From assembly GCF_024502345.1 (NCBI RefSeq), contig NZ_JALDNN010000001.1: a DNA stretch of 64,000 nucleotides; one strand, 5' to 3'. This DNA comes from Escherichia coli. Lineage in GTDB: Bacteria; Pseudomonadota; Gammaproteobacteria; Enterobacterales; Enterobacteriaceae. A program made the translations under genes and the position numbers. The notes below the pieces were generated by a model, which ran no database searches, was not told where the DNA came from, and saw only the letters and a program-made list of their open reading frames with translations. Positions 13,502-48,866 of the stretch are shown here, one piece after another (position 1 is the first letter of the stretch; every line of letters starts with the position of its first letter).

Positions 13502-14020
13502 ATGTCCATCCGTTTTGCCCGCAAAGCCGACTGTGCTGCCATTGCGGAAATTTATAACCACGCCGTGTTGTATACGGCGGCTATCTGGAATGACCAAACG
13601 GTGGATGCAGATAACCGCATTGCCTGGTTTGAAGCGCGGACCATAGCAGGTTATCCGGTGCTGGTAAGTGAAGAAGATGGCGTAGTGACGGGATATGCCT
13701 CATTTGGCGACTGGCGTAGTTTCGATGGTTTTCGCCATACCGTGGAACATTCGGTTTATGTCCATCCCGATCATCAGGGCAAAGGTCTGGGGCGTAAATT
13801 GTTAAGCCGATTGATTGATGAAGCGCGGGATTGCGGGAAGCATGTCATGGTCGCCGGGATCGAATCGCAAAATCAGGCCTCGCTGCATCTGCACCAGTCG
13901 CTGGGATTTGTCGTCACCGCACAAATGCCGCAGGTGGGCACTAAATTTGGGCGCTGGCTGGATCTGACATTTATGCAGTTGCAACTCGACGAACGCACTG
14001 AACCGGACGCGATTGGATGA
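13502..14020 (+). CDS. mnaT: GNAT N-acyltransferase (methionine derivative N-acetyltransferase)
   Basis: 172-aa GNAT-like ORF from ATG 13502; the longer track ORF (13268) overlaps the curA start and is rejected. Confidence 0.85.
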   Translation: MSIRFARKADCAAIAEIYNHAVLYTAAIWNDQTVDADNRIAWFEARTIAGYPVLVSEEDGVVTGYASFGDWRSFDGFRHTVEHSVYVHPDHQGKGLGRKLLSRLIDEARDCGKHVMVAGIESQNQASLHLHQSLGFVVTAQMPQVGTKFGRWLDLTFMQLQLDERTEPDAIG

Positions 14021-14466
14021 ATCAGTCGCTCACCCTTGCCTTTTTGATTGCCGCCGGAATTGGTCTGGTAGTCCAGAACACGCTGATGGTGCGCATCACC
14101 CAGACCTCCTCTATCATTCTCATCGCCATGTTGCTGAACTCACTGGTGGGGATTGTGCTCTTTGTTTCTATTTTATGGTTTAAACAAGGTATGGCGGGGT
14201 TTGGCGAACTGGTGTCCAGCGTGCGCTGGTGGACACTTATACCTGGCTTGCTGGGATCGTTTTTTGTCTTCGCCAGTATCAGCGGATATCAGAATGTGGG
14301 AGCGGCGACAACTATTGCAGTACTGGTCGCCAGCCAGCTGATTGGCGGTCTGGTTCTGGATATCTTCCGCAGTCATGGCGTACCACTACGGGCGTTGTTC
14401 GGCCCAATTTGTGGCGCAATTTTACTTGTGGTTGGCGCCTGGTTGGTAGCCAGACGCTCATTTTAA
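14017..14466 (+). CDS. ydcZ: Inner membrane protein YdcZ (DMT-like)
   Basis: 149-aa hydrophobic ORF, 4-bp overlap with mnaT. Confidence 0.85.
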   Translation: MNQSLTLAFLIAAGIGLVVQNTLMVRITQTSSIILIAMLLNSLVGIVLFVSILWFKQGMAGFGELVSSVRWWTLIPGLLGSFFVFASISGYQNVGAATTIAVLVASQLIGGLVLDIFRSHGVPLRALFGPICGAILLVVGAWLVARRSF

Positions 14467-43891: not shown

Positions 43892-44692
43892 TTAACGTAA
43901 CGAGCGACTTTCCATCGCCTCGATGAGCACCGCATCATGTTTCAGCGTTTGCCATGCATGGATGACTTCTGCCGGAAAATCAACGTGAACGATAAAATCT
44001 CGCCCGCGGGGACCGTAGCCATCGCTATCATCGTGTAAACGCGGCAGCTCGCCAGTGAGTAGTGAGAGATAACGCTCAACCGGCCATAATCCTTGTAACT
44101 GATTAATAAAGATTACACTGTCTGCGTTATTTCCTAACTGAGGAACGAATCCGGGATAACTTAACCAGCGTGGTGCATCGGGATTGTCCCCGGTCATACG
44201 GCGGAACGTTGCCATCGTGCGCCGCTGCATGGTGGGGTCCTGTACAACGATAGCCGTATGAACTCGTTCTACGGCCTGATTCAATAGCGCGATGCTAAAG
44301 CGTGCGTTTTCACCGCAGTTTGTTGACTGGTCTTCAATCCAGATTTTTTCATGCGGAATGTGCCAGAACTGATGAGCGATATCCGCCAGGATGGTCGCTT
44401 CTGCTCTGCCAGTGGTGCGGATAGTGTTGTAGTGCGTATGCTGTGCGATGGCGCTATACAAAAATGTTGTCGAGTGACCGATACCACCACTAATCAGTAA
44501 AGGAATTTGCTGATCGCGGGCAATCTTACATGCCGCATCGATAGTCGGCATAATCGCATTGCCTGCAAGGATCACGCAATCGGCCTGATACGGCACCTCA
44601 CCGGAGAAATCATCCTGCGCCAGCCACTGTCCGATAACATTTATGGCATCTATAGTTGCCGGCGAAAGCGTCGGAAACGGGGTAATGTTCAT
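43892..44692 (-). CDS. ydcF: DUF218-family protein YdcF
   Basis: 266-aa ORF at conserved position. Confidence 0.85.
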
Positions 44693-44906
44693 GGTTCCTC
44701 CTTATCGTTCCCTTAAGAATACTGCGTGAGATAATAGTGAGAAGCGGAGCACTCTGAAAGGAGGAAGTCGTATGTCCTTAACCGCCACTCCGCAAGCCTG
44801 ACATATCTTTTAAGGAAATGCTGTAGATAAACATTATTCATCTTGCAGCAGAGAATTGTATTTTTCTGAATTCCTGAATTTTTACCCTTACCATTTTAGA
44901 ATTAAT

Positions 44907-44942
44907 AAAAAACCCGGCGCTAAATGCTTACCGGGTTTTTTC
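44907..44942 (-). terminator. Rho-independent terminator downstream of hrpA
   Basis: CCCGG/CCGGG stem flanked by an A-run and a T-run (bidirectional). Confidence 0.55.
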
Positions 44943-44963
44943 TTTATCAGGCAAATAGCAGGG

Positions 44964-47900
44964 TTAACCGCTAATCTGCTCCATCGCCTGCAAAATACGC
45001 TTATCTGAAATCGGATAAGGCGTACCAAGTTGTTGAGCGAAGTAACTAACGCGCAACTCTTCTATCATCCAACGGATCTCTTTCACGTCTTCATCCTCAC
45101 GACGTGCGGGCGGCAGTTTGTTGATCCATTGCTGCCACGCCTGCTGGACGTTTTCGACTTTCAGCATCTGCGCACGGTCGCGATGTGGATCAACCGCCAG
45201 TTTTTCCAGCCGTTTTTCAATCGCCTGCAAATATCGCAGCGTGTCGCCCAGCCGTTTGAAGCCGTTACCAGTGACAAAACCGCGATATACCAACCCGCCC
45301 ATCTGCGCTTTAATGTCAGAAAGCCCCAGCGCCATGGTCATATCCACCCGCCCTTTCAGACGTTTGTTGATATTGAACACTGCCGTAAGGATTTGCTCGA
45401 CCTGCTTCGCAATATCCACCACCGTGTCGTTCAGTTCGGCACGCACTTTTTCATGCAGCGCAGCAAAGCCTTCTTCCGTCCAGACCGGGCCACCATTGGC
45501 GTCGATCAATTTATCCACACCGCAGGAGATACAGTCGTCGATCAGCTCCAGCACTTTGCCATACGGGTTAAAGTACAGTCCCAGCTTGGCTTTGTTCGGT
45601 AACTTTTCATGTAAATATTTGATTGGCGATGGAATATTCAGCAGCAGTAGACGGCGAAGACCGTTCCACATTGCCTGCTTTTGCTCCAGCGGGTTATCAA
45701 ACAGTTTGATCGCCACACTGTCGCGCTCATCCACCAGCGCCGGCCACGCCTTCACTTTGTAGTTGCCACGCTTCTGTTCGTAGCTTTCCGGCAGCTGACC
45801 AAAACTCCAGATATGTAAGCCGCTCTGCTCGATACCGTCATCCGCCACCGCAGATAGCGTTTCCTGCACTTTGCCTTTCAGCGCATCTTTCAGATCTTGT
45901 AGCGAGCGCCCTTCTTTTAGCTTCTTGTTTTTGTCATCCACCACGCGGAAGGTAATTTTCAGGTGATCAGGCACCTGATCCCAGTGCCAGTCTTCGCGGT
46001 CAACGGTAACGCCGGTCATCCGCCGTAACTCGCGCTCAAGGCTGTCGAGCAACGGTAACTCCAGCGGTTTGACGCGGCCTAAAAACGCTTCGGCATAGTT
46101 TGGCGCGGGTACAAAATTACGGCGTACCGGTTTCGGCAACGATTTAATCAGAGCAATCACCAGTTCGCGGCGCAGACCGGGGATCTGCCATTCAAACCCG
46201 CTTTCCTCAACCTGGTTAAGTAACGGCAGCGGAATATGTACGGTCACACCGTCAGCATCCGCGCCGGGCTCAAACTGATAGCTCAAACGCAGCTTGAGAT
46301 TGCCCTGATGCCAGAAGTTCGGGTAATCCAGCTTGCTGATTTTTTCTGCGCCCTCTTTGATCAACATGCTTTTTTCAAAGTTGAGCAAATCAGGGGTTTC
46401 GCGGCTGACTTTTTTCCACCAGCTGTCGAAGTGACGAGCGGAGATTACATCGTGGCTGATGCGCTGGTCGTAGAACTCAAACAACGTTTCGTCATCAACC
46501 AGAATATCGCGGCGACGTGATTTGTGTTCCAGTTCTTCCACTTCAGCCCGCAGTTTCAGGTTTTCACGGAAGAATGCGTGACGCGTCTGCCAGTCACCTT
46601 CCACCAGCGCATGGCGAATAAAGAGTTCACGACATAACGCCGGATCGATCTGGCTGTAGTTGACCTTGCGCGCGGCAACAATCGGCAAACCATAAACAGT
46701 GACTTTTTCCGTTGCCATCACCGCGCCCTGCGCCCGTTCCCAGTGCGGTTCGCTGTAGGTACGTTTAATCAAATGCTGAGCGACAGGCTCCACCCATTCC
46801 GGGTCGATACGCGCAGCAATGCGCCCCCACAGGCGGCTGGTTTCTACCAGTTCCGCCACCATTACCCATTTCGGCGGTTTTTTGAATAAACCAGAACCGG
46901 GGAAGATGGAGAAACGCGCGTTACGTGCGCCGGTATATTCTTGTTTATCGGCATCTTTCATGCCGATATGGGATAGTAAACCCGTCAGCAACGCAATGTG
47001 AATTTCGCGATACTCCGCCGGTTCGCTGTTAACCGGAATGCCAAGTTCTTTCACCACCTGACGCAACTGGGTGTAGATATCCTGCCATTCGCGCACGCGC
47101 AGATAGTTGAGATAATCGGTACGACACAGGCGACGGAAGGCGTTTGAAGAAAGCGCCTTTTGCTGCTCGCCAAGATAATTCCACAGATTTACAAACGCGA
47201 GGAAGTCGGATTCTTTGTCGTGGAAGCGACGATGTTTTTCGTCCGATGCCTGCTGTTTGTCCATCGGCCGCTCACGCGGGTCCTGAATGGAGAGCGCGGA
47301 CGTGATAATCATCGCCTCACGCACGCAGCCATGTTTCTGCGCTTCCAGCACCATACGCGCCAGACGTGGGTCGACAGGCAACTGCGAGAGCTGGCGACCG
47401 AGCGGCGTCAGTTTATAGGCGCTGGCCTGTTCATCCGTGGTGATCGCGCCCAGCTCTTCGAGCAGACGCACGCCATCCTGGATATTGCGTTTATCCGGTG
47501 CTTCGACAAACGGGAACGCAGCGATATCGCCCAGCCCCAGCGCGGTCATCTGCAAAATAACCGAGGCCAGGTTGGTACGCAGAATCTCCGGATCGGTAAA
47601 CTCCGGGCGCGAGAGGAAATCGTCTTCGGAATAGAGACGAATACAGATCCCTTCGGACACACGACCACAACGGCCTTTACGCTGATTGGCAGACGCCTGT
47701 GAAATGGGTTCAATCGGCAAACGCTGCACTTTGGTGCGATAGCTGTAGCGGCTGATACGCGCCGTACCGGGGTCGATAACGTATTTAATCCCCGGTACAG
47801 TCAGCGAGGTTTCCGCGACGTTGGTCGCCAGCACAATGCGTCGCCCGCTGTGCGACTGGAACACGCGGTTCTGTTCGCTATTCGAAAGCCGCGCATAAAG

Positions 47901-48866
47901 CGGCAAGATTTCGGTATGGCGTAAGTTCAGCTTGTTCAGCGCATCGGCGGTATCGCGAATTTCCCGCTCGCCGCTCATAAAGATCAGAATGTCGCCAGGG
48001 CTTTCCTGGCTCAGTTCGTCTACGGCGTCAAAAATCGCCTGCAACTGATCGCGCTCGGTGTCATCGGCTTCTTCAACAATCGGGCGATAGCGCACTTCCA
48101 CCGGATAGGTCCGACCGGAGACTTCGATAATCGGCGCATTATTAAAGTGGCGAGAAAAGCGTTCCGGGTCGATAGTCGCGGAAGTGATAATGATTTTTAG
48201 GTCAGGACGCCGCGGCAGCAACTCTTTCAAATAGCCGAGCAGAAAATCGATATTCAGGCTGCGTTCGTGTGCTTCGTCAATAATGATGGTGTCGTACTGC
48301 ATCAGCAGGCGGTCTTGCTGGATCTCCGCCAGCAGGATACCGTCGGTCATCAGCTTGACCATCGTGTTATCACTTACGTGATCGCTGAAACGCACTTTGT
48401 AACCGATGCAACCGCCTGGCTCCGTTTTCAGCTCTTCCGCAATACGGTTCGCCACCGTTCTTGCCGCCAGACGACGCGGCTGGGTATGGCCGATCAGTCC
48501 TTTAATCCCGCGCCCCAGCTCCATACAGATTTTCGGTAGCTGAGTCGTTTTACCGGAACCGGTTTCCCCGGCGACGATCACCACCTGGTGATCACGAATC
48601 GCTTCGAGAATGTCCTGTTTTTTCTGACTAACCGGCAAATTGTCCGGATAAGTGATTTCCGGACGTGCCGCTTCACGCAGCAGGACTTTCCCTGCCGCCT
48701 GGTCAATCTCTTTCGCCATCTCCTGGAAAATGGCCTGTTGTGCATCAGGATTTTTAACCTTCTTCACACCGTGCAGACGGCGAGAAAAACGCTGTCTGTC
48801 GCGCAGCATCAGCGAATCCAGCCGCTGCTGCAAGACTGTAAAGGTCAATTTTTGTTGTTCTGTCAT
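44964..48866 (-). CDS. hrpA: ATP-dependent RNA helicase HrpA (DEAH-box)
   Basis: 1300-aa ORF with GETGSGKTTQ Walker A and DEAH motif. Confidence 0.95.
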   Translation of the reverse strand: MTEQQKLTFTVLQQRLDSLMLRDRQRFSRRLHGVKKVKNPDAQQAIFQEMAKEIDQAAGKVLLREAARPEITYPDNLPVSQKKQDILEAIRDHQVVIVAGETGSGKTTQLPKICMELGRGIKGLIGHTQPRRLAARTVANRIAEELKTEPGGCIGYKVRFSDHVSDNTMVKLMTDGILLAEIQQDRLLMQYDTIIIDEAHERSLNIDFLLGYLKELLPRRPDLKIIITSATIDPERFSRHFNNAPIIEVSGRTYPVEVRYRPIVEEADDTERDQLQAIFDAVDELSQESPGDILIFMSGEREIRDTADALNKLNLRHTEILPLYARLSNSEQNRVFQSHSGRRIVLATNVAETSLTVPGIKYVIDPGTARISRYSYRTKVQRLPIEPISQASANQRKGRCGRVSEGICIRLYSEDDFLSRPEFTDPEILRTNLASVILQMTALGLGDIAAFPFVEAPDKRNIQDGVRLLEELGAITTDEQASAYKLTPLGRQLSQLPVDPRLARMVLEAQKHGCVREAMIITSALSIQDPRERPMDKQQASDEKHRRFHDKESDFLAFVNLWNYLGEQQKALSSNAFRRLCRTDYLNYLRVREWQDIYTQLRQVVKELGIPVNSEPAEYREIHIALLTGLLSHIGMKDADKQEYTGARNARFSIFPGSGLFKKPPKWVMVAELVETSRLWGRIAARIDPEWVEPVAQHLIKRTYSEPHWERAQGAVMATEKVTVYGLPIVAARKVNYSQIDPALCRELFIRHALVEGDWQTRHAFFRENLKLRAEVEELEHKSRRRDILVDDETLFEFYDQRISHDVISARHFDSWWKKVSRETPDLLNFEKSMLIKEGAEKISKLDYPNFWHQGNLKLRLSYQFEPGADADGVTVHIPLPLLNQVEESGFEWQIPGLRRELVIALIKSLPKPVRRNFVPAPNYAEAFLGRVKPLELPLLDSLERELRRMTGVTVDREDWHWDQVPDHLKITFRVVDDKNKKLKEGRSLQDLKDALKGKVQETLSAVADDGIEQSGLHIWSFGQLPESYEQKRGNYKVKAWPALVDERDSVAIKLFDNPLEQKQAMWNGLRRLLLLNIPSPIKYLHEKLPNKAKLGLYFNPYGKVLELIDDCISCGVDKLIDANGGPVWTEEGFAALHEKVRAELNDTVVDIAKQVEQILTAVFNINKRLKGRVDMTMALGLSDIKAQMGGLVYRGFVTGNGFKRLGDTLRYLQAIEKRLEKLAVDPHRDRAQMLKVENVQQAWQQWINKLPPARREDEDVKEIRWMIEELRVSYFAQQLGTPYPISDKRILQAMEQISG

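Follow-up and report, generated by a model that had tools for sequence, protein, structure and literature searches.

A nine-codon ORF with a near-ideal Shine-Dalgarno motif in the ydcF-hrpA spacer of Escherichia coli: a probable by-product of drift in a deletion scar

Main finding

The spacer between ydcF and hrpA in Escherichia coli contains a nine-codon open reading frame placed behind an AGGAGG motif. We consider it very probable that this AGGAGG-ATG mini-ORF arose recently, as a by-product of neutral drift over the ydcF promoter region in a deletion scar, and is not a gene. The original prediction had offered three readings, namely a micro-protein, a leader peptide or chance, and it is chance that gains support from the shuffle counts, the derived ATG, the allele census and the outgroups. 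Coordinates, shuffle expectation, allele states with their counts and the homology to a gene-island tail are shown directly, and the K-12 start sites of ydcF are taken from the literature; the absence of function, the direction of the mutations and the hexamers of the upstream ydcF promoter (P2) are what we infer.

The mini-ORF and its genomic setting

The window, i.e. the whole stretch of 64,000 nucleotides that was analysed, carries AGGAGG at 44759-44764, then the 7-nt gap AAGTCGT and an ATG at 44772 on the plus strand, as read directly from the sequence and exactly as first noted. The frame ATG TCC TTA ACC GCC ACT CCG CAA GCC TGA (44772-44801, plus strand) is likewise confirmed and translates into MSLTATPQA. 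It runs opposite to both of its neighbours, as had been stated, with ydcF and hrpA both on the minus strand; aldA is located beyond ydcF. The features needed first are these:

43892-44692, minus strand: ydcF, a DUF218 protein of 266 aa, with its own AGGAGG 4 nt before its ATG
44759-44764, plus strand: SD-like hexamer AGGAGG, at the margin of the conserved promoter block of ydcF; the K-12 upstream ydcF transcription start site (TSS) at 44760 (minus strand) falls within the hexamer
44772-44801, plus strand: nine-codon mini-ORF from ATG to TGA (MSLTATPQA*), lineage-specific and not conserved
44964-48866, minus strand: hrpA, an ATP-dependent RNA helicase of 1300 aa

An identical mini-ORF is found in K-12 MG1655 at complement(1487126..1487155), with a single substitution in the stretch between the SD motif and the ATG, and the spacers of the window and K-12 align with zero indels. 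The curated RefSeq annotation of MG1655 has no feature at the site of the mini-ORF. The peptide has 9 residues without obvious features, and there is no regulatory codon run. Taken together, motif, 7-nt distance and start codon come close to the optimum, and in strains with the ATG a plus strand RNA that includes them would probably be translated. The combination that marks a small-protein gene, a ribosome-binding site and a start codon at proper spacing, is present in the ATG allele only (2689/5426 genomes).

Distribution of the start codon among Escherichia

The start codon was compared in an alignment (A1) of eleven sequences, nine from E. coli and two from cryptic Escherichia clades that served as outgroups; two B2-type alleles (L091 and L092) were read separately. 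ATG and an intact mini-ORF are seen in the window, in K-12 and in one further allele (L089). The remaining 8/11 aligned alleles, both outgroup clades included, have ATT instead of ATG, and so do the two B2-type alleles; in all, ATT is found in nine other E. coli allele samples and takes the place of ATG in every other allele group sampled. Nissle 1917 and ATCC 11775 are among the strains with natural ATT alleles. Both B2-type alleles also have codon 3 changed from TTA to TGA, an in-frame stop, and one of the outgroups (L007) combines ATT with a lost stop (TGA to TGG). In a second alignment (A2), the positions of the start codon and the SD read ATT and AGGAAG in E. albertii and E. whittamii, and all alleles that bear the gene island described below share both states. 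Polarised by the outgroups, ATG would be the derived state and ATT the ancestral one.

A census was made over 5426 complete E. coli genomes with exact 33-mers (window 44768-44800), in which the start-codon base was forced to match:

ATG allele: 2689/5426 genomes, exact 33-mer
ATT allele 1: 800/5426 genomes, exact 33-mer
ATT allele 2: 261/5426 genomes, exact 33-mer
ATT allele 3: 195/5426 genomes, exact 33-mer
Other alleles, unclassified: about 695/5426 genomes, by subtraction
K-12-type segment absent: about 780/5426 genomes (~14%), by segment matches

Conservation of the reading frame had been named as one check on the mini-ORF. Neither the frame nor the start codon passes it, given the ATT alleles, the gain and loss of stop codons and the lack of the whole segment in ~14% of the genomes, and the idea of a conserved micro-protein is therefore refuted. 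Translation at a low level may nevertheless occur in strains that bear the ATG, such as K-12.

Sequence variation along the spacer

Variable columns were counted per stretch, first among the 9 E. coli alleles and then among all 11 sequences of alignment A1:

44693-44765, ydcF 5' UTR and core promoter: 0/73 variable (9 E. coli); 5/73 (all 11)
44765-44801, stretch from SD to ATG plus mini-ORF: 6/37 (9 E. coli); 13/37 (all 11)
44802-44892, remainder of the scar: 8/91 (9 E. coli); 15/91 (all 11)
44893-44963, terminator region: 6/71 (9 E. coli); 13/71 (all 11)

The stretch with the mini-ORF (44765-44801) thus has the highest variable share of the four. About three of the changes within the mini-ORF are synonymous, and the others are non-synonymous or strike the start or stop. 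Across the 11 aligned alleles and the two B2-type ones, nothing points to purifying selection that acts on the frame. The block of the ydcF 5' UTR and core promoter (44693..44765, minus strand) is common to the island-type alleles too, and the AGGAGG is conserved because it stands at the edge of this invariant block, not owing to the mini-ORF.

Chance occurrence of SD and ATG pairs

AGGAGG is found 14 times in the window on both strands together, against 14.6 times in shuffles of dinucleotide type, and the combination of AGGAGG, 4 to 10 nucleotides and ATG occurs 5 times against 2.0 +/- 1.5 in the shuffles. The 5 sites comprise three starts of long ORFs, that of ydcF among them, and two mini-ORFs. 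When 5-mer SD cores are allowed, there are 12 mini-ORFs of at most 30 codons with SD and ATG in the window. The motif counts are near the level of the shuffles, and hence the motif by itself is what chance yields.

The second AGGAGG mini-ORF, near position 14110 on the minus strand, has its ATG 8 nt on and comprises 24 codons, antisense within a plus strand ORF of 149 aa (14017..14466), and as an internal control it indicates that such motifs arise by chance. An SD and ATG pair of textbook quality can consequently appear by chance, here in two non-genic cases per 64 kb.

Promoters of ydcF beneath the mini-ORF

Two TSSs of ydcF (b1414) were mapped by SMRT-Cappable-seq at NC_000913.3 positions 1487203 and 1487167 (Yan et al. 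2018; PMC6131387). These positions can be transferred from K-12 to the window because the spacer has no indels, and they correspond to 44724 and 44760, respectively. Two promoters are placed accordingly:

44731-44758, minus strand: ydcF proximal promoter P1, with -35 TTCAGA (44758-44753), a 16-nt spacer and -10 TATTAT (44736-44731), from a consensus promoter scan
44767-44795, minus strand: inferred ydcF upstream promoter P2, with -35 TTGCGG (44795-44790), a 17-nt spacer and -10 TACGAC (44772-44767), hexamers read by eye

From the scanned -10 of P1 down to its start at 44724 the distance is exactly 7 nt, and the P2 start at 44760 lies within AGGAGG. Mapped TSSs and suitably spaced sigma-70 hexamers are thus both present for ydcF, the hexamers of P2 being putative. 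The nucleotides of the mini-ORF overlap both the -35 and the -10 proposed for P2, on the opposite strand.

The last base of the putative P2 -10, at window position 44767 (K-12 1487160), differs between strains: K-12 has TACGAT, compared with TACGAC in the window and most other alleles. Judged from this base, the P2 start may be weaker or absent in the strain of the window.

An ATG ORF of 42 codons on the minus strand (44713..44841), which ends 20 nt before the start of ydcF, was considered as a uORF of ydcF or a gene remnant and rejected, with a stop in one allele (L090), many non-synonymous changes and an interruption by the island junction. This ORF is probably non-coding.

A deletion scar in a cassette hotspot

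A 351-nt region around the spacer has matches in 5418/5426 complete genomes, full length in only 4605 of them. The middle segment of K-12 type (44764-44905) is found in 4640/5426 genomes, with identities from 100% down to 93.7%, and no annotated feature lies in it among the 60 matches listed. The genomes that lack it (about 780) have a 1.8-kb island of four genes or some other arrangement. In O157:H7-type genomes the homology ends at ~44765 and restarts at the hrpA terminator, with the 1.8-kb island between. The island of E. coli O157:H7 strain 1130 (L002 3159-4847) encodes four small hypothetical proteins of 125, 143, 112 and 141 aa on the strand of ydcF. Escherichia sp. MOD1-EC7003 and E. 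whittamii likewise carry genes for all four between hrpA and ydcF; the two proximal to ydcF are seen on a truncated contig of E. albertii, and in one genome named E. coli (L004) the ends of the island remain but its genes have been deleted. Searches with the four proteins gave no match in Pfam, NCBIfam or PADLOC and no meaningful sequence match in PDB.

44766-44892, no strand: K-12-type variable segment (deletion scar), homologous to the ydcF-proximal non-coding tail of the island and its last codons

In alignment A2, the K-12-type GAAGTCGTATTTCCTTAACCGCC corresponds to GAAGTCGAATTTTCTTTATCGTC in E. albertii and GAACTCGAATTTTTTCAACCGCC in E. whittamii, and the homology extends as far as the final codons of island gene 1. 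Because of this homology to the island tail, the most plausible reading of the K-12-type spacer is an old scar left by deletion of the four-gene island.

A 16-nt direct repeat between 44778-44793 and the 3' end of hrpA (44964-44979), 81% identical, was also considered as a duplicated hrpA end; this was rejected, as the repeat is short and the alignment with the island tail explains the segment better.

Further variants of the spacer were observed. At the island-type junction AAGGAAGATAATG (L002 3110-3200, plus strand), an SD-like motif precedes an ATG; the ORF of ~28 codons that begins there overlaps the 3' end of island gene 1 in antisense and is another coincidental mini-ORF at the same junction. 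In E. coli strain 15.03CC (L088 1-345), IS1 is inserted in the scar, and beside it the segment is reduced to the 61 nt nearest hrpA. Among Citrobacter and relatives (L010-L025, L043 and L052), some hrpA-ydcF spacers measure 66-126 nt and contain a GC-rich, REP-like hairpin, and others hold unrelated inserts of 0.7-1.8 kb; in one of them (L023) the spacer insert is a same-strand ORF. The spacer looks like a long-standing cassette hotspot, bounded by the hrpA terminator and the ydcF promoter motif TTTCAGAG.

The events proposed for the assembly of the mini-ORF are as follows. The four-gene island between hrpA and ydcF would have been deleted, leaving a scar of ~130 nt. A first point mutation would then have turned AGGAAG into AGGAGG in the lineage with the scar, and a subsequent one, in part of E. 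coli, ATT into ATG. The resulting mini-ORF would lie on the non-template (plus) strand over the ydcF promoter region, where AGGAGG spans the mapped start of P2.

A possible transcript on the plus strand

Two further elements bear on possible expression from the plus strand:

44727-44735, plus strand: TGAGATAAT, an extended -10-like element, read in the sequence, invariant in alignment A1 and not reported by the consensus scan
44901-44947, no strand: Rho-independent terminator hairpin of hrpA with flanking A-tract and T-tract, recognised as an inverted repeat and by folding, and absent from a strict terminator scan

The plus strand GATAAT in TGAGATAAT overlaps the minus strand -10 of P1 (TATTAT) with an offset of 1 nt, which is the geometry of a bidirectional promoter. 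Bidirectional sigma-70 promoters with overlapping -10 elements were reportedly described by Warman et al. in 2021. A spacing of 18 bp between divergent TSSs is common among bidirectional promoters (PMC12825309). The plus strand site has a poor -35. From its position, TGAGATAAT is predicted to start a plus strand RNA near 44742, of ~205 nt and ending at the hrpA terminator. That terminator could be bidirectional and could stop plus strand transcripts that cross the mini-ORF. The predicted RNA of ~205 nt folds more stably than shuffles (z = -2.5), with AAGGA from the SD base-paired to UCCUU in codons 2-3.

Published data were searched for such an RNA. SMRT-Cappable-seq left out RNAs below 1 kb and is silent on a transcript of ~205 nt (PMC6131387). 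No entries near the locus occur in the accessible portion of the Cappable-seq supplements (PMC4782308), and the supplement of smORFer and those of the bidirectional-promoter paper have no entry for it. A literature search on ydcF returned nothing about the intergenic region and no report of such an RNA. Rfam gave only sub-threshold matches, with Thr_leader and Leu_leader far below threshold. GcvB (RF00022) aligns over its full length to 44751-44945 with 21.8 bits, short of the gathering threshold of 42 (E = 0.006-0.013).

Alternative explanations

Among the alternatives, a young lineage-specific micro-protein or proto-gene fares best, which in ATG strains would be translated from a divergent transcript of a bidirectional P1, running from ~44742 to the hrpA terminator. 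The SD, spacing and start codon are near ideal, and the ATG allele is common (2689 genomes). TGAGATAAT is 1 nt off the P1 -10 and fits the divergent spacing of 18 bp, with the P1 TSS at 44724 confirmed, and the terminator ~100 nt downstream of the mini-ORF would complete an sRNA-like unit with a fold at z = -2.5. However, TGAGATAAT has a poor -35 and was missed by the scan, the SD is paired with codons 2-3 in the predicted fold, and the frame is kept in no lineage without the ATG. Furthermore, the peptide of 9 residues has no obvious features, the MG1655 annotation is empty at its site, and the available parts of the start-site and small-ORF data that we consulted contain neither a plus strand TSS nor a ribosome footprint for it. 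We therefore regard a proto-gene as unlikely. Very unlikely is the fuller version, according to which two point mutations would have made a translatable nine-codon ORF on a divergent ~205-nt P1 transcript in about half of E. coli, K-12 included, as a datable birth of a micro-gene.

The same elements might instead delimit a non-coding sRNA of ~200 nt on the plus strand (44742-44947) that contains the mini-ORF by coincidence. A promoter-like element, a terminator and the stable fold (z = -2.5) agree with this, as does the GcvB alignment, which is full-length though sub-threshold (21.8 bits). Yet that score is half of the 42-bit threshold, and the alignment has many non-canonical pairs and is mostly driven by the terminator. 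The G of the ATG pairs in the 5' stem of the GcvB alignment, and in the ATT alleles a mismatching U takes its place. The body of the RNA would coincide with the part of the spacer that evolves fastest, which is missing from ~14% of genomes, and the literature searched reports no such RNA; we give an sRNA only a very small probability.

The AGGAGG could also matter through its complement. CCUCCU lies in a perfect 9-bp inverted repeat, TTCCTCCTT and AAGGAGGAA (44695-44703 and 44758-44766), and could act as an anti-SD that hides the ribosome-binding site of ydcF in long transcripts; the minimum-energy fold of the minus strand leader indeed pairs both arms. However, both ydcF TSSs (44760 and 44724) are at or downstream of the upstream arm, and hence the ydcF mRNA lacks the anti-SD. 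Moreover, the fold of the leader is not more stable than shuffles (z = +0.72), island-type alleles have AGGAAG, and one outgroup (L005) alters the SD arm of ydcF without a compensating change. On the TSS positions and the fold z-score we rejected this hairpin, whose probability is slighter still than that of the sRNA.

A leader peptide that controls a downstream gene by attenuation, as also suggested at the outset, shares the short frame, the strong SD and a terminator hairpin ~100 nt on, but it deserves next to no credence and is excluded since no plus strand gene lies downstream, where only the hrpA terminator and then 3.9 kb antisense to hrpA follow, while the hairpin belongs to hrpA as its terminator, a regulatory codon run is lacking and the ORF is not conserved.

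Implications

A by-product of drift, which we prefer over these alternatives, is of little importance in itself, and its context is more useful: the hrpA-ydcF spacer as a cassette hotspot, the K-12 arrangement as a scar and the motif atop two mapped ydcF promoters. A strain-level allele census combined with an outgroup comparison can settle such calls fast. If the mini-ORF were translated, AGGAAG/ATT, AGGAGG/ATT and AGGAGG/ATG would form a natural series for the emergence of a de novo micro-ORF, with the ATT and island-type alleles as controls.

Comparison with known systems

The mini-ORF resembles attenuation leaders of the trpL, pheL, thrL and leuL types in its brevity, its strong SD and the terminator hairpin that follows. 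Unlike these, it is not conserved, lacks a run of regulatory codons and is followed by no gene on its own strand, and the hairpin terminates the convergent hrpA. As in dual-function RNAs such as Spot 42 with its 15-aa SpfP, a tiny ORF would be located within a possible transcript of ~200 nt that ends in a terminator; RNAs of the Spot 42/SpfP type and their ORFs are reportedly conserved, with expression shown by experiment (PMC8916003), whereas here the transcript is predicted and the ORF is lineage-specific.

The overlap of -10 elements on opposite strands, with TSSs predicted to lie 18 bp apart (44724 and ~44742), would fit the pattern of bidirectional sigma-70 promoters (PMC12825309). In contrast to the documented cases, only the TSS in the direction of ydcF is mapped here, by an assay that leaves out RNAs below 1 kb.

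The order of the enabling mutations given by the outgroups, from AGGAAG to AGGAGG and then from ATT to ATG, recalls the de novo birth of ORFs through proto-genes, although expression, selection and function of the mini-ORF are hypothetical. Many ORFs of 1-10 codons are contained among the initiation-enriched ribosome footprints in Table S1 of Stringer et al. (bioRxiv 10.1101/2021.07.02.450978). Those mini-ORFs are supported by footprints, while the one between ydcF and hrpA is known only as a sequence; nevertheless, it is like the spurious or pervasively translated mini-ORFs of E. coli in that study in having few codons, an SD-like motif, no conservation and a setting at a promoter or in antisense.
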